Source of the DNA: Minisyncoccota bacterium
Lineage (GTDB): Bacteria > Patescibacteriota > Minisyncoccia > Phycocordibacterales > XYD1-FULL-46-19
Assembly (NCBI GenBank): GCA_041665625.1
Contig: JBAYIK010000001.1
Coordinates: forward strand, 196,341 to 260,340
Length of the DNA stretch: 64,000 nucleotides
Direction: 5' to 3'
Shown: positions 12,503 through 20,293 of the stretch, one piece after another
How positions within the stretch are numbered: position 1 is the stretch's first letter
Layout: each line of letters starts with the position of its first letter
Program-made: the position numbers and the translations under genes
The notes under the pieces: generated by a model
The model's input: only the letters and a program-made list of their open reading frames with translations
The model's database searches: none
Told to the model about the DNA's origin: nothing

Positions 12503-12533
12503 CATCCCAACAAACTCCAGTTTGTAAGGGTGT
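12503..12533. repeat. copy 1 of a 34-bp conserved element (CATCCCAACAAACTCCAGTTTGTAAGGRTGT)
   Basis: Contains the inverted repeat ACAAACT-CC-AGTTTGT. It lies about 45-75 bp upstream of the -10 of gene 12058..12456. Confidence 0.7.
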
Positions 12534-12554: not shown

Positions 12555-12860
12555 TTAAGATAACGAGCGGAAAGTCTTTAAAAAATCAACAAAAATTTTG
12601 CCATAAGGAGAGAGCTCATGCAAAACAAATTTGCCTTGATACTTCTTGTTAACCAAGCCGGCGACATTGAGTCGTCTCGTATGCTCCCCGATCGTCTTCT
12701 CGTTGGCCTTAATCAATTCAATAATCTCCTCGAGTGTAATCCGCGGGTGGGCAGCAATAGCCAGAAGAATCTCGATGCGATAGTGATTGGCCAAACCCTT
12801 CAGATGTCGCTCCATCTGTTTGGAAGTTTTGAACTTATTCATGTCAATATTATACACCAA
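12555..12860 (-). CDS. ArsR/SmtB-family HTH transcriptional regulator
   Basis: 'HLKGLANHYRIEILLAIAAHPRITLEEI...GEHTRRLNVAGLV' is a winged-HTH ArsR signature. The track start is TTG. An ATG at 12843 lies 6 nt after a TATAAT box, giving a leaderless transcript. Confidence 0.7.
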   Translation of the reverse strand: MVYNIDMNKFKTSKQMERHLKGLANHYRIEILLAIAAHPRITLEEIIELIKANEKTIGEHTRRLNVAGLVNKKYQGKFVLHELSPYGKIFVDFLKTFRSLS

Positions 12861-12872
12861 AGCTGTTTCTTC

Positions 12873-12906
12873 TCATACCAACAAACTCCAGTTTGTAAGG
12901 ATGTTT
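12873..12906. repeat. copy 2 of the 34-bp element, overlapping the -35 region of the ArsR-like gene promoter
   Basis: TCATACCAACAAACTCCAGTTTGTAAGGATGTTT. Its position is what an autoregulatory operator would occupy. Confidence 0.7.
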
Positions 12907-12915
12907 AAAATTTGG

Positions 12916-13419: not shown

Positions 13420-13472
13420 TTTTTTCCCCGAAGTCGTATCTCGCGTAGCCAGATCCGACTTCTTAGCTTAAC
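13420..13472. repeat. short copy of the intergenic element 'CCCCGAAGTCGTA..(loop)..ATCCGACTTCTTAGCTTAA'
   Basis: 7-bp inverted repeat GAAGTCG/CGACTTC. The minus-strand orientation gives 'GGGGAAAAAAATG' providing SD and start for 12916..13419. Related copies at 15121 and 16423. Confidence 0.6.
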
Positions 13473-13864
13473 ATTTTATAATATTCGGGATAACTTTTCT
13501 TAATAAAATTCTTCCAACAAGCTGTCTCATTACCATGACCTAAATCTTTTTTCCCATAGACAAGAAGGACTCTTACAACCCCCTTGTCTTTATGAAGAGC
13601 GACAATGCACCGATTGCCAGAACCGTGTCTTGACTCTTGAGTTCCGGAAATTTTAAATTCTGTCTTACAAATAACGATATCTGCATCTTTATCTGTTATC
13701 GGCTCAGCAATACTCTTCAAAAATAGGGCGTCAATCTTCTCAAATTCCTCAGCGATAGTCCCAAGTGTAAAGTCCCAAGCTCCCTTATACTTCTTAGCAA
13801 AAGATTTTATAAAGTGCCTCTCCGCAAAAGGCTCGAAGATAACTCTATACTTAGTAAACCTCAT
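13463..13864 (-). CDS. putative toxin partner of the Panacea-domain antitoxin (small protein, unknown family)
   Basis: About 134 aa from 'MRFTKYRVIFEPF...', overlapping the 3' end of the upstream HTH-Panacea gene by about 14 nt. The track ORF runs to 13912. Confidence 0.45.
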   Translation of the reverse strand: MRFTKYRVIFEPFAERHFIKSFAKKYKGAWDFTLGTIAEEFEKIDALFLKSIAEPITDKDADIVICKTEFKISGTQESRHGSGNRCIVALHKDKGVVRVLLVYGKKDLGHGNETACWKNFIKKSYPEYYKMLS

Positions 13865-14534
13865 GAGGATCTTCCTGTGTAATAAGAGCGTAAGAGACAA
13901 TTTCTTCATCATCAGCCATTAAATATGGCAGTTGGTTATGAGTAAAATTAACAATTTCGGCTGTTTTTTTATCTTTCCACTTTCTATGAATTTCTTTCAT
14001 TAAGTTTTCTTCCTCAGGCAAAATAGATTCTAACTTTTGTTTTTTATTACTATCTGACTCACTAATTATAATCATTTCTTTGCCATCAGCGTTCTTGCGG
14101 TCAACGATTATCTTTCCTTCTTCCTCAAGCTCATCAAGGGCTCGAAAATAAGAATCTGGAACTGGCCCATATTTAATTTTACGATACTGCATACCACTCA
14201 TGCTATTCAAATGACTATAAAACCAGGCAAAATCAGAGAGATAGACAAGTTTGGCCAATTTAGTCTTTTTAACACTTTTACCCAATCGGAGAAAAGACAG
14301 GATCATCTGCTTATATTTCTCGTAATTAGGAGACTCACCCTTCTCCATCTCTTCGAAAGGTATATTTAAAATGCCTGAGAGTTTTTCAAATTCACTCATA
14401 GACAGCTCTCTCTTCCCCTGTTCAATGGCAATATAAGAAGGACGAGAAAGACCCAATTTAGAGGCTAAGTCTAATTGGGAGAGACCTTTCTTAAGTCGAG
14501 AGGCTTTAATCAGCTTCGCGTACTTAGTAATCAT
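13851..14534 (-). CDS. HTH_XRE plus Panacea (DUF4065, SocA-like) domain protein, antitoxin-like
   Basis: 'LSQLDLASKLGLSRPSYIAIEQGKR' is Cro/C1 HTH. 'KLAKLVYLSDFAWFYSHLNSMSGMQYRKIKYGPVPD' is the Panacea signature. ATG at 14534 has a TATACT box 12 nt upstream (track ORF to 14696). Confidence 0.65.
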   Translation of the reverse strand: MITKYAKLIKASRLKKGLSQLDLASKLGLSRPSYIAIEQGKRELSMSEFEKLSGILNIPFEEMEKGESPNYEKYKQMILSFLRLGKSVKKTKLAKLVYLSDFAWFYSHLNSMSGMQYRKIKYGPVPDSYFRALDELEEEGKIIVDRKNADGKEMIIISESDSNKKQKLESILPEEENLMKEIHRKWKDKKTAEIVNFTHNQLPYLMADDEEIVSYALITQEDPHEVY

Positions 14535-14781
14535 ATACCAATAAGTATACATAAACGTGTAAATAATGCAAACATAGGTGTTGATAAGTTTGACATAAAA
14601 AATAAACGGAGTAAAATTTATAGAGGAGAGAGCCTTTTTGCGGAAATCCTCTCCCCTAAAACATAAATATCTTTTTTGCCCTTTGGGGTATTTCAACTAA
14701 ACTAATAAGTAAAAACTTTAACACTTTTATTTTACCAAATTTAGATTAATTAATAAACAAGGGTAACTAACCAAACATTCA

Positions 14782-14982
14782 ATGCCTTATTACACTCGTA
14801 ATACCGGCAAATCGTGGACACCAAAAGATGTGACGCAGTTAAAACAGCTCGTTCGTCAAAATACACCAACACGAGTCGCCGGATTCAAACTTGGCAGAAC
14901 TGAAGATGCGGTCAGAGCAGAGGCCAGTAAACTCTCCCTCAGCTTAAAGCCAACAAACCAGTCGCCGCACAATAGAAAGTAG
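14782..14982 (+). CDS. small putative DNA-binding (HTH-like) protein
   Basis: 66 aa. '...WTPKDVTQLKQLVRQNTPTRVAGFKLGRTEDAVRAEASKL' resembles sigma-70 region-4/terminase-small-subunit-like HTH. Its own terminator follows. Confidence 0.45.
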   Translation: MPYYTRNTGKSWTPKDVTQLKQLVRQNTPTRVAGFKLGRTEDAVRAEASKLSLSLKPTNQSPHNRK

Positions 14983-14996
14983 ACCTTAAATTTGAA

Positions 14997-15037
14997 AAGA
15001 AAGAACGAGACCGCAACTCGTTCTTTCTATTTTTTTA
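14997..15037 (+). terminator. intrinsic terminator
   Basis: AAGAACGAG-ACCGCAA-CTCGTTCTT then TCTATTTTTTTAT. Confidence 0.7.
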
Positions 15038-15068
15038 TCTATAATTTATGAGACTAACCTCAGTCTCC

Positions 15069-15102
15069 TCATCCCAACAAACTCCAGTTTGTAAAGATGT
15101 TT
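15069..15102. repeat. copy 3 of the 34-bp element
   Basis: TCATCCCAACAAACTCCAGTTTGTAAAGATGTTT. Confidence 0.7.
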
Positions 15103-15120
15103 AGGCGTTTTTCTTTCTTC

Positions 15121-15140
15121 TCCCCTTTTCCCCGAAGTGA
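15121..15140. repeat. partial copy of the 'CCCCTTTTCCCCGAAGT' element
   Basis: Matches the 5' part of the elements at 13420 and 16423. Confidence 0.45.
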
Positions 15141-15202
15141 GTTTTAGTTGTTATGACACATTTTACCCTTGAGACGAGGCCTGACCTCGTTTCTCTAATA
15201 AA

Positions 15203-16342
15203 TTAATCTGCTATATCAATATCAGGGATATCTCCATAATACTGGAGTGCCCGAAGTATTGCCGGAAAAAGGGTGGAATCAGATACCGGATGCATGACAA
15301 AAGGAGGGAGAGCTTGCAAGTTCTGTCCAGAAGAAGCCTTCTCGTCAGCCTGGTAATGAAAAGAGAAATTAGTGAAATACAACGCATTCCAAGCAGAAGG
15401 ATTTTCTTTTGTAACATTTTTGGAATGAGAGGCATTTTTAAAGATATTTTTCACCCACGGTATCTTTTTAAAATCCCCTGATTCTTCATGTGGTACATTT
15501 ATATCAACAAAGACAAGAAAAGGCATCTTGCCACACTCTGTTTTTTTAAAGGCCTGGTTAAGGAGACGTTGGATACCTCCGCCATTAATTTTGGACCCAT
15601 TAACATCTCCTGGGGTATGAAGGATTCCAGGCCTGTGCCTACTTTTAGCTTCGACGGCGATTTCTACTCCTGACTCTTGATGTGTGGCAATAAATTCACA
15701 ATGTGGCTCTGAATGGTCTTCTTCATCTAGCCATCTTATATTAAAACCTAATCGCGCAATGATTGCAGCAATCATAATTTCGTATCTTGCCCCTTGATAT
15801 TCTAACGGCGTTTTAAGACGACCAAGAAGAAAGTCAGGTATTCTAGAAACATGTCTTAGTGTTGAAATATCAAAAGCAAGAGAAATTAAAGATTTAGTCC
15901 ACCCGTTTGGAGGAGCCTCTAATACGCCAGGGGTTTTATAATTAGGTTTAGCCAAGAGTTCTTTTTTCCATTCATCAAATTTCAAAAAACATTTCACAAT
16001 AAAATGTTGATCTTCCCACAACAGAGACTGTTGCTCATTAATCCATTCGAAACTCAAAGTATCTTTAAGAATAAATTGAATAAAATCATGAAAGGTCTCA
16101 TCAGAATTTTCGCTAAGATATACTTGATTACCAATTGCCCAGACTTTTTTCCCTTTGTGAATTACCGGGTTAACATAATTAATATAAATCCCTTTTTGCT
16201 TAAGAAGATTTTCTTTTTCTCGTATTTTTTTAAAATGTAAGAGTACTTCCATGGGAACAGGTGAGTTATCTTCATCCATATGACATTTTTTATATTTCTT
16301 ACCACTTCCACAGTGGCAAAGCTGGTTTCTTCCTAATTTCAT
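15203..16342 (-). CDS. SEC-C metal-binding motif protein with possible PD-(D/E)xK nuclease-like core
   Basis: N-terminal 'CHCGSGKKYKKCH' (SEC-C). The central 'EPHCEFIATHQESGVEIAVEAKSRH' resembles an E..ExK restriction-endonuclease-like signature. No other recognised domain. Confidence 0.55.
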   Translation of the reverse strand: MKLGRNQLCHCGSGKKYKKCHMDEDNSPVPMEVLLHFKKIREKENLLKQKGIYINYVNPVIHKGKKVWAIGNQVYLSENSDETFHDFIQFILKDTLSFEWINEQQSLLWEDQHFIVKCFLKFDEWKKELLAKPNYKTPGVLEAPPNGWTKSLISLAFDISTLRHVSRIPDFLLGRLKTPLEYQGARYEIMIAAIIARLGFNIRWLDEEDHSEPHCEFIATHQESGVEIAVEAKSRHRPGILHTPGDVNGSKINGGGIQRLLNQAFKKTECGKMPFLVFVDINVPHEESGDFKKIPWVKNIFKNASHSKNVTKENPSAWNALYFTNFSFHYQADEKASSGQNLQALPPFVMHPVSDSTLFPAILRALQYYGDIPDIDIAD

Positions 16343-16422
16343 AATAATTTATTTTTTAATCATGTCCTCACAACACACCACGTTGTTCAACAGAATTGAA
16401 TCAATGGGAACGACCCCATTAA

Positions 16423-16541
16423 TCCCCTTTTCCCCGAAGTCGTACTTCAAGCGCTTGCCCTGCGCCGTGCCGGCCATAGCTTTAGCGAAGACTAGAAGCT
16501 TCGGTGAAGTAGGGAGCTCGAAATCCGACTTCTTAGCTTAA
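16423..16541. repeat. long copy of the intergenic element (same ends as 13420..13472, with an extra internal segment of about 75 nt)
   Basis: 'CCCCTTTTCCCCGAAGTCGTA' ... 'ATCCGACTTCTTAGCTTAA'. Lies between the methyltransferase and SEC-C genes. Confidence 0.6.
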
Positions 16542-17812
16542 GAAACAAAATCCAAGAGAGACTTTCCAAGCCTCTCAATAACTCCAACGACCAGAGCATT
16601 ACCCATAATAAAGGCTCTTTTTGTGTCTGGGGTAACTTTTCCATTTAACATAAATTTTGTGTGGTCAGAAGGAAACATGTTTAACTTCTCCAACTCAAGT
16701 GGGGTAAGCCGGCGAAGCCTGCCAGATTTAGTCTTAATGACGTGTTTAAAGCGCGAGGGAGAACTTCCACCTTCCCCCGTCACAATTGTTCTGGATGGCT
16801 TATCAAGAGAATCAGGAAAAGCCATTGGGCCTTCTGAGTAATCATATTCAAACCCATCTTTTGATTTCCGCCCCTCTTTCTTTCCACCTTTTAAATATTC
16901 CCATCTTTTTTGATCAGCCTTTTTTATAAAAAATTCTTCTGGAATTTTTGCTTCGTCGTGAATAATAATATTTTTAAGTAAAATAGACTTACCATTATAA
17001 TTAGGCACAGATTTTACTGAGTAGACTTTTCTATCAATCATAACTCCGGAAACATCAAAAGGGCTTTTAGTTGGTTTATTTGAAGAAAAATTCTTAGATA
17101 TTTCCTCCAGACTTCCCTCAATTCTAAATTCGCCCAATTTACCTTCACCTTTTTTCACAGGGAAAGCTTTAGCAATTACTCCATCTTTGTAAATCCAATT
17201 TTCAAGATTTTTTTCTTTTTTAATAGCATTAAAAATCTTACTGCCTTTTTTATACCCCATAATAAAAACTCTTCTCCTTCTTTGCGGCATCCCGTAATCG
17301 GCCGCATTTACAACCCTCCATTCAACTGCATAACCAAGATAAGAAAGAGAGGTCAGCATAACAGCAAAATCTCGACCTCTCTGTCCTGAAGGGGATTTTA
17401 ATAATCTATCGACATTCTCTAACATTAAAAAGTTCGGGGAATTTTTTCCTTTTTTATTTAAGATATTATAAATAGACCACCATAAAACACCTTTCTTACC
17501 ATAGATACCCTTAGCCTGGTTCGCTGTTCTCGCAACAGAATAATCCTGACAAGGAAATCCCCCGACAAGTAAATCATGGTCAGGTATTTCTTTAAATTTA
17601 TTTTCAACGACATCTTGGATATCTTCACAAGAATGTCCCTCTTCTCCAAATATGTTTATATAAATCTGAGAAGCATGTTGTGTAGCTGCCCCTGGTTCCC
17701 ATTGGCTATTCCATACTGTCTCATATTTTAAGTCTTTTTTACTTGCAGCATCAAGGCCAAGGCGGAAGCCCCCAACACCGGCAAAAAGCTCAAGGACTCT
17801 TATTTTCTTCAT
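16538..17812 (-). CDS. DNA (cytosine-5)-methyltransferase
   Basis: Motif I 'LFAGVGGFRLGL', motif IV 'GGFPCQDYS', motif VI 'ENVDRLL'. Adjacent to a Sau3AI-like endonuclease. Confidence 0.85.
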   Translation of the reverse strand: MKKIRVLELFAGVGGFRLGLDAASKKDLKYETVWNSQWEPGAATQHASQIYINIFGEEGHSCEDIQDVVENKFKEIPDHDLLVGGFPCQDYSVARTANQAKGIYGKKGVLWWSIYNILNKKGKNSPNFLMLENVDRLLKSPSGQRGRDFAVMLTSLSYLGYAVEWRVVNAADYGMPQRRRRVFIMGYKKGSKIFNAIKKEKNLENWIYKDGVIAKAFPVKKGEGKLGEFRIEGSLEEISKNFSSNKPTKSPFDVSGVMIDRKVYSVKSVPNYNGKSILLKNIIIHDEAKIPEEFFIKKADQKRWEYLKGGKKEGRKSKDGFEYDYSEGPMAFPDSLDKPSRTIVTGEGGSSPSRFKHVIKTKSGRLRRLTPLELEKLNMFPSDHTKFMLNGKVTPDTKRAFIMGNALVVGVIERLGKSLLDFVS

Positions 17813-17843
17813 AAAGAGATTCTAACAGATAGCGTCAAAAAGA

Positions 17844-19247
17844 TCAATATTGATCTTTTTGGTTTTCTATGGCCTGCTGTATATACTTAGCATTTAACCA
17901 AAAACACCGTTTCATTTCCTGTGTTTTTTGGGGAGTTTCAATGGTATCTGTACTGTCTTTCCCGTGAGGTCGAACGTGGGCAACAGGACTTTCCTTCATT
18001 TTTGGCAAATCTTCGTACCGACCATCCTTAATACAATCAACTGTTTTTTGCCAGACCTTTTCTACCTCACCAATGTCTTTCATCGGAAAATTCCAGAAGA
18101 AGGTTTTCTTCAATATTATATTTTTACTCCTCTTTTCCTTTTGAAAAACGACAAATAAAAACTTCTTTGTCTCCAGCTGTAAATGAAACTCGGCCATAGT
18201 TTCGTCTTCTTCGTCAAACCACAAATCATTTACTAAACTTTTGTAGTCGAATGCAGGAAAAGAAATAGATTCTCTTAGTGTCCCGGTGTGTTCAAGAGTA
18301 ATGACTCTAAGTGTAATGTTGGCCTTCTCTAATTCCTCTACATTATTTGATTCAACGTCTAATATCCTGTTAACAATTAATCTTTTGTAACTCTTTGATT
18401 TTTTGCCGAGACTTGAATTTAACTTAGCTAGTATCTCCGTGTCTGTTTTGCCAATAAATTGGCTAAATTTTTCTTTAACAACATCTTCAATTGTTTCAAT
18501 TCTCCGGTGTTTCTTAAAGATTGAGTCAGTATTTGTTTTTTCTCCAAGCAGTTTAGTCTGAATAAGGTAATTGATATATTGCTGTTTAAAAGAAAAGGCT
18601 CTCGGTTTCGCAGCGATGCGCCCCATCGGCTGATCCCTAACAACTCGGCTATTAGCCGCTTTAGTGCAAGCTCCCAGATAATAAGTATCTCCCTCAGAGA
18701 GCAAGTGGGCTTCCCCTCGTTTAATCTTATTTACTATATATTCCCAGTCTTTTTTAATCTGAAAAACATCTTCGTCGGAAATATCCTCAAGGAGCTTCAG
18801 CAAATGGACAAACTTGAACTCATAATCAAGGATACTTTGACTTTCAATCCAAAGATAGAACATCAGTAGTAAAGTTTTATTCTTTTTTAGGAAAGAGCTT
18901 TGTTCCCAGGTCTCACCGACAACGGTATCATAATTAATCATTGAAAAGACGAGACGCTCCTTAGAGGAGAGCTTACCGGTGTTGTGTTTTTTTAGAGGAG
19001 TAGTCTTCAGCTCAACACTCGCAACAGTAAAATCTGGTTCACTTATATTACCTGGATTGATTTCGAAAAAATATTTTTCCATTAAATCACCCAAAAAACC
19101 TTTGCGTTTCAATCCGTACCCACCAATTTGTTCTTCAATTGCCCCGAGACTTCCAGAAGGGATGACTTGGCGCAAAGACTTTTGCAAAATAGTCTTTGCT
19201 TTCTCTAAAACCTGTTCTTTTGTGTTATATGTTTGAGACATGTTCAA
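17844..19247 (-). CDS. Sau3AI/MutH-family type II restriction endonuclease (GATC-type predicted)
   Basis: 'EPDFTVASVELKTTPLKKHNTGKLSSKERLVFSMINYD', 'EAHLLSEGDTYYLGACTKAANSRVVRDQPMGRIAAKPRAFSFK' and C-terminal 'HVRPH...FWLN' parallel the MutH/Sau3AI catalytic and duplicated domains as I recall them. Confidence 0.7.
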   Translation of the reverse strand: MNMSQTYNTKEQVLEKAKTILQKSLRQVIPSGSLGAIEEQIGGYGLKRKGFLGDLMEKYFFEINPGNISEPDFTVASVELKTTPLKKHNTGKLSSKERLVFSMINYDTVVGETWEQSSFLKKNKTLLLMFYLWIESQSILDYEFKFVHLLKLLEDISDEDVFQIKKDWEYIVNKIKRGEAHLLSEGDTYYLGACTKAANSRVVRDQPMGRIAAKPRAFSFKQQYINYLIQTKLLGEKTNTDSIFKKHRRIETIEDVVKEKFSQFIGKTDTEILAKLNSSLGKKSKSYKRLIVNRILDVESNNVEELEKANITLRVITLEHTGTLRESISFPAFDYKSLVNDLWFDEEDETMAEFHLQLETKKFLFVVFQKEKRSKNIILKKTFFWNFPMKDIGEVEKVWQKTVDCIKDGRYEDLPKMKESPVAHVRPHGKDSTDTIETPQKTQEMKRCFWLNAKYIQQAIENQKDQY

Positions 19248-19900
19248 ATATTAGAAATAAAACTTGCCGACAAAGTTTTAGAAACCACAACATGATCAAC
19301 GACTTTAATGTCTAAGATTTTCCCCGCACTGATTAGCTTCTTAGTAACCTCGATGTCATCAGCGGAGGGTTCAAGGTCGCCAGAGGGATGATTATGAGAA
19401 ATTATAATTGAAGAGGCGTTATTTTTAATGGCTCCCTCAAAGACTTCTCGAGGATGAACAAGGCTTTCATTAAGAGTGCCAATTGAAATAATATCTCTTT
19501 GTATTTCTTGGTTACGGCTATCCAGGTAAAAAACAACAAAGTGCTCCTTTTTGCTTCCCCTTATGTCCTCCATCCTCTCCCAGACATCTTTTGGGGAAAG
19601 TAATATAGAGGATTTCTTGTCTTTCAACATCCTTTTGCCAAGCTCAAAACAGGCCATAATTTCACAAGCTTTTGCCGAACCTAGGCCATGGATAGTTTTT
19701 AATTCATCAATACTTATATCAACAAATTTTTCGTTTTCAAATTTCTGTAAGATTTTTTGAGCTAGTTTTAGCACATTCAAATCTTTTGTACCAGTACGAA
19801 GCAAAATCGCCAGCAATTCGACGTCAGATAATTTGCCCGGACCATACTTTTCCATCTTCTCTCTTGGTCTATCAACACGGGGTAAATCCTTAATTTTCAT
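19244..19900 (-). CDS. radC: RadC-like JAB/MPN domain protein
   Basis: 'HNHPSGDLEPSADDIEVTKKL' is the JAMM motif. HhH-like N-terminus. Confidence 0.8.
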   Translation of the reverse strand: MKIKDLPRVDRPREKMEKYGPGKLSDVELLAILLRTGTKDLNVLKLAQKILQKFENEKFVDISIDELKTIHGLGSAKACEIMACFELGKRMLKDKKSSILLSPKDVWERMEDIRGSKKEHFVVFYLDSRNQEIQRDIISIGTLNESLVHPREVFEGAIKNNASSIIISHNHPSGDLEPSADDIEVTKKLISAGKILDIKVVDHVVVSKTLSASFISNI

Positions 19901-19996
19901 AATTTATTTTCCTATTCTACCACATTTCTCGCCTTTTTACGATAAACCAAAACACCCCCGAAGGGAAGGGTGTTTTGAGTAAGTACCTAGAATTAT

Positions 19997-20293
19997 CTAG
20001 ATTACCTTCCAGAGAAATTTACGATAAGCGGGAGAGAGGTCCGCCCAAGATTTAAAGGCTTTATATTGAGCAATGGATTGTTGAGAATTTTTTGAATCAA
20101 TCGTCTCAATCTCAATAACGACTTCAGCATTCCCATTCCGTACGTAAACATCAGGAATATAGCCATTAATAACTGGCGGTTTATTGTTTCCGGGCAAATC
20201 CGAATAAACAACAGGCCAACCAGCACGAACATATTGAGAAGCAATATTTGCCACTTCAGTATCGTGGATAACTTGATTTTCTTTTGGTCTCAT
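19997..20293 (-). CDS. hypothetical small protein (weak PD-(D/E)xK-like 'IPDVYV...EVVIEIE')
   Basis: 98 aa with a flanking hairpin terminator at 19945-19975. Function unknown. Confidence 0.4.
   Translation of the reverse strand: MRPKENQVIHDTEVANIASQYVRAGWPVVYSDLPGNNKPPVINGYIPDVYVRNGNAEVVIEIETIDSKNSQQSIAQYKAFKSWADLSPAYRKFLWKVI

Follow-up and report, generated by a model that had tools for sequence, protein, structure and literature searches.

We analyzed a 64,000-nucleotide stretch (hereinafter, the window) of contig JBAYIK010000001.1 from a Minisyncoccota bacterium (positions 196,341 to 260,340 of the forward strand), with a focus on a protein-coding gene located on the minus strand at positions 15203-16342 of the window. 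This gene, the product of which we denote P0001, is a complete, ATG-initiated open reading frame (ORF) of 379 codons followed by a stop codon; the frame is uninterrupted, no other long ORF is present in this stretch, and both the ORF list and direct reading of the sequence indicate that the ORF is genuine. A predicted protein identical to P0001 comes from a metagenome-assembled genome of Candidatus Paceibacterota and is encoded on two contigs, of 293 kb and 20 kb. The gene lies within a low-GC (guanine-cytosine) island of about 7 kb (13463-20293; GC fraction of approximately 0.37 vs 0.44-0.50 in the flanks) that was delineated from the composition profile and Pfam matches, and the dip in the GC content of the window spans, roughly, 13.5 to 20.4 kb. 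The island comprises, in order, a 149-amino acid (aa) ORF, an antitoxin gene of the helix-turn-helix (HTH)-Panacea type, a 66-aa ORF, the P0001 gene, and the genes for a methyltransferase, a Sau3AI-type endonuclease, RadC, and an AHJR-like nuclease. A preliminary description of this locus interpreted the P0001 gene as a candidate novel defense or abortive infection gene that adjoins restriction-modification genes. This adjacency was borne out by Pfam, NCBIfam, and PADLOC searches: upstream of the P0001 gene, on the same strand, lie the genes for a C5 DNA methyltransferase (16538-17812, minus; Pfam DNA_methylase, E = 1.9e-61; PADLOC MTase_II) and a Sau3AI-family endonuclease (17844-19247, minus; NCBIfam restrict_Sau3AI, 434.6 bits vs the cut-off of 300; PADLOC REase_II), which jointly constitute a complete Type II restriction-modification system (16538-19247, minus).

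The first 22 residues of P0001 (MKLGRNQLCHCGSGKKYKKCH) match the Pfam SEC-C domain (PF02810; residues 5-22, encoded at 16277-16330, minus) with E = 5.8e-9 and a score of 36.1 bits, well above the curated cut-off of 20.4 bits, and contain the CxC...C(H/C) pattern of predicted metal ligands (C9, C11, C20, and H21), in agreement with the original assignment of an N-terminal SEC-C motif. In a PDB sequence search, the N-terminus also resembles the C-terminal metal-binding peptides of SecA. Outside of this zinc knuckle, the protein is indeed as unrecognizable as it first appeared: the body of P0001 gave no match in Pfam, NCBIfam, PADLOC, or PDB, with either phmmer or profile searches, SEC-C being the single element recognized by any of these, and for 60 relatives, which were scanned singly, the bodies likewise remained without a match in these resources. 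In the scan with PADLOC-DB v2.0.0, which had been suggested as a check at the outset, no model covers the body of the protein, and the matches are confined to residues 2-26, where they correspond to the SEC-C-like tails of the E2, E1-E2, and PDC-S12 models.

An AlphaFold2 model of P0001, built from a 60-sequence alignment, is of high confidence, with a mean predicted local distance difference test (pLDDT) score of 91.5 and a predicted template modeling (pTM) score of 0.88. Four parts can be delineated in this model: the zinc knuckle; a linker helix (residues 31-49 according to DSSP; 16196-16252, minus), which is little conserved and variable in length among the homologs (alignment A1); a family-specific N-terminal domain (residues ~55-178; 15809-16180, minus), in which a three-stranded beta meander is followed by helices; and a C-terminal alpha/beta domain (residues ~179-345; 15308-15808, minus). 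The C-terminal domain is predicted to adopt a helix-strand-strand-strand-helix-strand topology, that is, a helix, three antiparallel strands, a second helix, and a fourth strand, which is the arrangement of the PD-(D/E)xK nuclease core. The residues expected of such a core are located accordingly in the model. Glutamate E188 (codon at 15779-15781, minus) lies on the first core helix (residues 179-197), within the Q183-G-A-R-Y187-E188 segment; E216 (15695-15697, minus), at the start of core strand 2, immediately precedes the strand 217-221 and occupies the position of the 'D' in the PD motif; and E231-A232-K233 (15644-15652, minus), the (D/E)xK motif, is in core strand 3 (residues 227-234). All these codons were read directly in the sequence. 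The 'EF....GVEIAVEAKS' string, from which a nuclease core was initially proposed, is thus present as E216-F217 ... E231-A-K233. Taken alone, such a pattern could have arisen by chance, but it is backed by conservation of 98-100% across the family and by placement on strands 2 and 3 of the predicted fold. The lack of a nuclease fold in a predicted structure, which had been named in advance as grounds for discarding the proposal, was not observed; instead, the prediction yielded a nuclease fold with a conserved acidic/lysine constellation, so that the C-terminal half of P0001 is predicted to be a nuclease of the restriction-enzyme type.

To delineate the family, residues 31-379 of P0001 were used as the query against 1.84 billion cluster representatives (clusters at 50% identity), which retrieved 1320 clusters at E <= 1e-3 and 301 clusters at E <= 1e-30. 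Conservation was assessed in 123 representatives of at least 300 aa, with approximately 30-45% identity to P0001. In this set, E188, E231, K233, and N282 are invariant (100%), Q183 is conserved in 99%, and E216, S234, H113, G147, and D158 in 98% of the sequences. The N-terminal domain of residues ~55-178, which has no match in Pfam, PDB, or PADLOC, includes several of the most conserved positions in the entire protein (T83-F84-H85, W100, H113, G147, D158, and R175, conserved in 85-98% of the representatives). Because this domain is constrained as strongly as the active site, it appears to be part of the function of the family rather than a variable appendage. The family is represented in Patescibacteria, in Thermoleophilia, and on plasmids of Caballeronia, Rhizobium, Agrobacterium, and Sinorhizobium, and one metagenome sample contains two versions with 41% identity, on separate contigs. 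In the viral collections that were searched, the family is rare, with only two IMG/VR loci identified, both close to the contig ends, and a structural search against BFVD yielded no significant match; a phage origin of the family is, accordingly, unsupported. Altogether, this is a new, large, and unnamed family that belongs, however, to a well-known enzyme superfamily and occurs in a well-known kind of genomic setting.

The combination of SEC-C with a nuclease, which was initially presented as the distinctive feature of this protein, is indeed found in P0001 but does not define the family. The CxC...C(C/H) motif was detected within the first 60 residues in 52 of the 123 representatives and is missing in the remaining 71; SEC-C (PF02810) was matched in 57 of 60 close relatives of P0001; a few relatives carry N-terminal additions other than SEC-C. 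Conversely, the same motif is attached to bodies that are unrelated to this family, in particular, in Bacillus plasmid proteins with N-terminal SEC-C, for which the profile alignment spans 26 residues only, and in the Enterococcus plasmid SEC-C proteins that we examined. Taken together, the incomplete presence within the family and the unrelated bodies elsewhere indicate that SEC-C is a promiscuous, optional N-terminal module. This promiscuity also affected the searches: a scan of genomic contigs with the full alignment retrieved, mostly, SEC-C-only matches and a single true relative (L009), and for the later scans of metagenomic and viral contigs, the alignment was trimmed to the body. Two observations on the N-terminal modules deserve mention in their own right. 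First, a locus denoted L090 (3989-4816) and 33 other Bacillus and Priestia plasmids encode a separate family of proteins of about 275 aa, in which an N-terminal SEC-C precedes a body that carries the annotation of a YkgJ-type cysteine cluster. Second, in P0180, a 456-aa JGI metagenome protein, SEC-C is replaced by an N-terminal region of 123 residues that matches a HicB-like antitoxin and a HicA toxin; this may be a real fusion or a gene-calling artifact on a 2-kb contig.

We then surveyed the genomic neighborhoods of the relatives of P0001. Using the body-only alignment, 80 metagenomic loci were gathered, the ORFs in these were called, and the neighbors were clustered; the comparison below covers 66 non-redundant loci. 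The 149 ORFs located within two genes of the 66 relatives (near set) were compared to 125 ORFs at least 3.5 kb away in the same loci (control set), with the top 25 Pfam families tabulated for each. The most common families in the near set are N6_N4_Mtase (7 occurrences), LexA_DNA_bind with Peptidase_S24 (6), and ResIII (3), followed by C5 DNA_methylase, RE_TaqI, RE_endonuc, Mrr_cat, and SocA_Panacea (two each), and MunI, MvaI/BcnI, and HSDR_N (one each); the PADLOC scan of the near set gave the same picture. At least 11 of the 66 loci contain a restriction-modification or Mrr gene within two genes of the family member. The control set, in contrast, consists mostly of housekeeping genes, with NUDIX, Toprim, sigma-70, and histidine biosynthesis at the top, and includes a single methyltransferase among the top 25 families. 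Given that restriction genes are common in the vicinity and housekeeping genes prevail at distances of 3.5 kb or more, the enrichment is local to the family gene. A predominantly housekeeping context of the homologs, the other finding that would have argued against a defense role, was not found; on the contrary, methyltransferases, restriction endonucleases, and Mrr-like nucleases are the most common families nearby. The neighborhood is conserved in part: the restriction-modification context recurs, but no single partner gene is conserved, and any given neighbor family occurs in about a tenth of the 66 loci at most. The adjacent restriction systems themselves vary widely and include Sau3AI, TaqI, MunI, MvaI/BcnI, an endonuclease-VII-like gene, Type III, and Type I.

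Individual loci illustrate this variety. The annotated contig of one relative is a prophage-like region with an HTH/M78 gene pair and a resolvase; among the other relatives, one is located next to a Type III restriction system and another next to an Mrr-like gene and a recombinase. The copy on a Caballeronia plasmid adjoins a Type I restriction system and an integrase, and that on a Rhizobium plasmid adjoins genes for an AAA ATPase, a helicase, and a patatin. In one Patescibacteria locus (L008, 7001-8152), dnaK and dnaJ are separated by the family member along with HD_4, Fic, and Trypco2 genes, so that the chaperone operon seems to be interrupted by a variable island of small size. Plasmids of Agrobacterium and Rhizobium (L092, 5917-8161, and L093, 5921-8155) encode a longer homolog of 475-477 aa that is preceded by an unannotated, conserved ORF of about 270 aa, which overlaps the start of the homolog gene in Agrobacterium and ends 7 bp upstream of it in Rhizobium; this arrangement suggests a two-gene variant of the system.

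These contexts bear on the possibility that P0001 is a housekeeping nuclease for repair or recombination in small-genome bacteria, for example, a structure-specific resolvase or a flap nuclease, with merely incidental restriction neighbors. We consider this explanation highly improbable: the P0001 gene is embedded in a low-GC island; the family is patchily distributed across phyla, including proteobacterial plasmids; the neighborhood is never the same, with restriction genes enriched near the family members and not at a distance; and two versions that are only 41% identical are found on different contigs of one metagenome sample.

The interpretation that we favor, with a probability of roughly 55%, is that P0001 is a stand-alone, gated DNA nuclease of defense islands, that is, a single-gene immunity effector. 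P0001 would be an endonuclease that depends on metal and has no fixed recognition sequence; the nucleic acid it cleaves would most probably be DNA, and E188, E216, and E231-x-K233 are the proposed catalytic constellation. The conserved N-terminal domain would gate this activity or recognize the target, as the N-terminal domains of Shedu-type proteins do, and the SEC-C knuckle would be an optional accessory involved in tethering or regulation. Such an effector would travel in defense islands, usually, at the edge of a restriction-modification module. The inference of a metal-dependent endonuclease that probably acts on DNA combines the predicted fold and conserved constellation, in which each of the active-site residues is 98-100% conserved and located on the expected helix or strand, with the extra domain, the optional knuckle, the location in an island, and restriction genes that are enriched locally although none of them is a constant partner. 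The conservation of the family across phyla and next to systems of many specificities further implies that it lacks sequence specificity of the kind seen in Type II enzymes. The nuclease fold predicted for P0001 and the homologs located, for the most part, outside of housekeeping contexts are consistent with the view of P0001 as a candidate defense gene, and a protective, anti-phage role would follow from this interpretation.

Several considerations weigh against it. An ungated nuclease would be toxic, and the gating is an assumption. The correspondence of the catalytic residues to those of known enzymes depends on a predicted fold. The enrichment in the neighborhoods was obtained with crude ORF calling and short contigs; four of the restriction-linked loci (L111, L119, L120, and L123) are close kin and, hence, are not independent; the control table covers the top 25 families only; and some of the relatives are found among ordinary genes, as in the case of the P0068 locus.

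The architecture of the protein would also fit a Type IV restriction enzyme, in which the N-terminal domain reads a modified base and the PD-(D/E)xK domain cuts, providing constitutive surveillance. Like such an enzyme, P0001 would combine, in a single polypeptide, an N-terminal domain without a known fold with a C-terminal PD-(D/E)xK domain; the invariant polar residues H113, D158, and R175 would suit a binding pocket; restriction-modification neighbors are frequent for genes of the Mrr/Mcr type; and the conservation across phyla is unlike that of Type II enzymes. However, P0001 matches neither Mrr_cat nor any PADLOC Type IV model, and only one of 60 relatives reaches Mrr_cat, with E = 0.026, so that we regard this possibility as unlikely.

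The proximity of a methyltransferase gene raises the question of whether the gated nuclease that we favor could be, instead, a component of the adjacent restriction system. P0001 can be ruled out as the cognate endonuclease of the neighboring methyltransferase, which already has a Sau3AI-family partner; the family remains constant next to systems of differing specificities, namely, TaqI-, MunI-, and MvaI/BcnI-type, Type III, and Type I. A Vsr-type repair partner of the C5 methyltransferase was rejected as well, given that relatives are found next to N6 and N4 methyltransferases and that no Vsr model was matched. A looser association is conceivable, in which the protein acts as an auxiliary nuclease on ends or nicks produced by the neighboring restriction enzyme, finishing the destruction of the DNA, and is co-regulated with that enzyme in some lineages. 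The location of family genes directly next to at least six different kinds of restriction-modification genes points in this direction, and the constancy of the family beside many specificities fits a sequence-independent role.

The strongest indications of such coupling come from a few individual loci. The tightest linkage to a restriction system among all the loci was observed in L121 (446-2091), where the gene for a SEC-C-less family member (1066-2091) overlaps the end of the MvaI/BcnI endonuclease gene (446-1069) by 4 bp; a gene for a 73-aa HTH protein of the controller type (222-443) lies ahead of the endonuclease gene. In five other loci, the family gene is divergent from, and separated by only 29-75 bp from, a gene on the minus strand in which, according to Pfam, a complete LexA module (LexA_DNA_bind and Peptidase_S24) is fused to the N-terminus of an N6_N4_Mtase domain (L111, 3764-5287; L119, 1440-2960; L120, 352-2217; and L123, 756-2186) or an MT-A70 domain (L130, 6445-7776), so that shared control is possible. 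The restriction endonuclease that accompanies the fusion differs from case to case and is TaqI-, MunI-, or endonuclease-VII-like. Judging by the domain composition, this would be a damage-cleavable repressor joined to the methyltransferase of a restriction system, an unusual combination, and a literature search found no paper on a LexA-methyltransferase fusion. Directly before the ATG codon of the family member, three of these loci share the leader AAGTTATCCCCAAT (L111, 5346-5362; L119, 3017-3033; and L123, 2223-2239), of which L130 has a variant (AAGTTATCCACAT) and which is absent from the gene in the window; this leader might serve these loci as a common signal for translation or as an operator.

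The overlap in L121 and the divergent arrangement with the LexA fusions thus keep functional or regulatory coupling with restriction systems possible. An auxiliary role, nevertheless, seems to us quite unlikely for the family as a whole, given that in about 50 of the 66 loci, a restriction gene is missing from the two nearest genes on either side (albeit on contigs many of which are short) and that, in the window, a terminator-like hairpin lies between the P0001 gene and the methyltransferase gene. Furthermore, the adjacency may be mere co-location in the defense islands of Patescibacteria, which consist largely of restriction-modification systems. No less doubtful, in our opinion, is the broader version of this idea, namely, that the family is a general 'restriction booster', a sequence-nonspecific nuclease recruited next to restriction systems of any type to degrade DNA at the ends or nicks left by them, a RecBCD-like job in bacteria with small genomes, and, in one lineage, co-induced via a LexA-like methyltransferase fusion. 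If this were the case, the loci with the LexA fusions would tie a DNA damage signal to a second wave of nuclease attack.

The 195-bp spacer between the methyltransferase and P0001 genes (16343-16537) contains the terminator-like hairpin (16398-16425, minus) and a 110-nt hairpin element (16428-16537); the former suggests that the P0001 gene is transcribed separately from the restriction-modification genes. In the preliminary description, the two genes were said to be separated by a 120-bp repeated element; the spacer is longer than that, and the 110-nt element within it has no full-length second copy in the window but is repeated in part. At 13422-13467, both of its ends are found again, joined into a compact hairpin of 46 nt. 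The shared structure consists of a GAAGTCG ... CGACTTC stem, after which, on the minus strand, comes GGGGAAAA(G)GGGGA; in the long copy, the loop holds a GC-rich insert of 60 nt, whereas the short copy ends in GGGGAAAAAAATG, the ATG of which is the start codon of a Peptidase_C39 gene. The short hairpin has fold z-scores of -3.7 to -4.4, compared to only about -1.8 to -2.0 for the 110-nt copy, and the element in the spacer has no Rfam match; a structured RNA in the spacer is, therefore, unsupported.

The beginning of the element, TCCCCTTTTCCCCGAAGT, is repeated as an exact 18-nt copy downstream of the P0001 gene (15121-15138; two matches in the window vs 0.09 expected by chance) and as a third, partial copy of 17 nt at 13422-13438. 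The 18-nt direct repeat was considered as a mark of the insertion of the gene as a cassette, but this was rejected as the main explanation in view of the third copy: the three copies of the hairpin element directly follow minus-strand genes of the island and, accordingly, look like a shared intergenic signal rather than an insertion mark. At the borders of the island, we found neither a tRNA gene nor flanking direct or attachment-site repeats. These repeats are relevant to yet another explanation, under which P0001 would be a toxin of an addiction module or a selfish element, such as an endonuclease of the homing type that stands alone and promotes the spread of the gene encoding it. We find this very unlikely: no small partner gene that could encode an antitoxin or immunity protein is conserved among the loci; the repeat that brackets the gene, with its third copy, looks like a common intergenic signal more than a target-site duplication; no 'empty site' devoid of the gene was found, although no search aimed at one was made; and the position inside or next to a target gene that is usual for homing endonucleases was not seen here.

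Several additional features of the island and its vicinity were noted. The HTH_3 and SocA/Panacea antitoxin-type gene (13851-14696, minus) overlaps the 149-aa ORF, which has no family match (13463-13912), and this region (13463-14696) is probably a Panacea-type toxin-antitoxin pair within the low-GC island. In the region 14782-15028 (plus), the ORF for a basic 66-aa protein, also without a family match, is convergent to the P0001 gene and is followed by a textbook intrinsic terminator, with a 12-bp stem (14998-15028) and a run of T. On the opposite side, the RadC gene (JAB domain; 19244-19900, minus) shares 4 bp with the beginning of the gene for the Sau3AI-type endonuclease and may be part of the same module; it is preceded by the 98-aa ORF with an AHJR-like nuclease fold (19997-20293, minus). 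Three intergenic sites (12503-12533, 12874-12904, and 15070-15100) carry 94-100% identical copies of a 31-nt repeat that contains a palindrome (ACAAACTCCAGTTTGT), with the similarity extending to about 80 nt for one of these (12828-12907 vs 15024-15103); an operator or a mobile repeat of small size are possible interpretations.

If the stand-alone nuclease indeed protects against phages or plasmids, it would represent a new single-gene immune system with over a thousand diverged relatives that is outside the scope of the current defense-finding models. The family is concentrated in Patescibacteria, in which immunity beyond restriction-modification is poorly known. Confirmation would also mean that, among the SEC-C-tagged proteins that recur on plasmids and in defense islands, one has a specific enzymatic activity, and could help explain Rugutis, a system described below. 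If P0001 is merely another island nuclease, the gain would be modest, namely, a new Pfam-type family and improved annotation for about 1,300 protein clusters. For specialists, the nuclease interpretation itself is, probably, plausible more than surprising; of greater interest are the consistent location alongside restriction systems of all types, the neighboring LexA-methyltransferase genes, and the possible link to Rugutis. In particular, the placement next to many types of restriction systems and next to the LexA-methyltransferase fusions makes it possible to test whether immune modules cooperate or are co-regulated.

By architecture, the closest described system is Rugutis, a single-gene anti-phage system encoded by a Lactococcus plasmid gene (pUCCL633_059), with a 359-aa product that consists of an N-terminal SEC-C and an unannotated body; the system is abortive-infection-like and becomes toxic once phage c2's large terminase is expressed (Grafakou et al., NAR 2024, PMC11381338; Mosterd et al., PNAS 2025, PMC12184496; PMC13064643). 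The comparison, which was made by description only, shows a similar size (359 vs 379 aa), SEC-C at the extreme N-terminus, and location on mobile DNA. P0001 thus displays Rugutis-like traits, with SEC-C at residues 5-22, a length of about 360 aa, and no conserved partner gene, but this is a resemblance only, given the promiscuity of the motif. In tblastn searches, neither P0001 nor the family consensus (the latter at E <= 1 in 72,556 plasmids) retrieved a Lactococcus plasmid; together with the presence of SEC-C on unrelated bodies, this leans, if indirectly, against homology of the P0001 and Rugutis bodies.

With the SecA C-terminal metal-binding domain, YecA, and YchJ, P0001 shares the CxC...C(H/C) motif and a basic KKYKKC stretch. 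The SEC-C domain of SecA, as outlined in a preprint, is a ligand of zinc or iron that also interacts with SecB and with ribosomes (bioRxiv 10.1101/613315); for YecA, too, binding of this kind is documented in the literature. Unlike the SecA domain, the motif in P0001 is N-terminal, is followed by a predicted nuclease, and is absent from most of the family. Shedu (SduA, DUF4263), HamA, NucC, and the Mrr-type nucleases are similar to P0001 by the mechanism proposed here. P0001 matches neither Pfam DUF4263 nor PADLOC SduA; furthermore, the N-terminal domain is variable in Shedu and conserved in the present family, in which the catalytic 'D' position is occupied by glutamate. HamA (DUF1837, Hachiman) and nucleases of the NucC/Cap4 type work with the HamB helicase or a cyclic-oligonucleotide synthase, whereas the P0001 family has no conserved partner and no PADLOC match. 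Because P0001 does not match the sequence models for Shedu, HamA, NucC, or Mrr-type proteins, we do not assign it to any of these groups. The predicted core topology and the E ... D/E ... ExK arrangement are common to P0001, the Hjc, AF1548, and Mrr-type nucleases, and the Type II enzymes PaqCI, NgoMIV, and HindIII; to this core, P0001, which has no detectable sequence similarity to any of these proteins, adds a conserved N-terminal domain of 120 residues.

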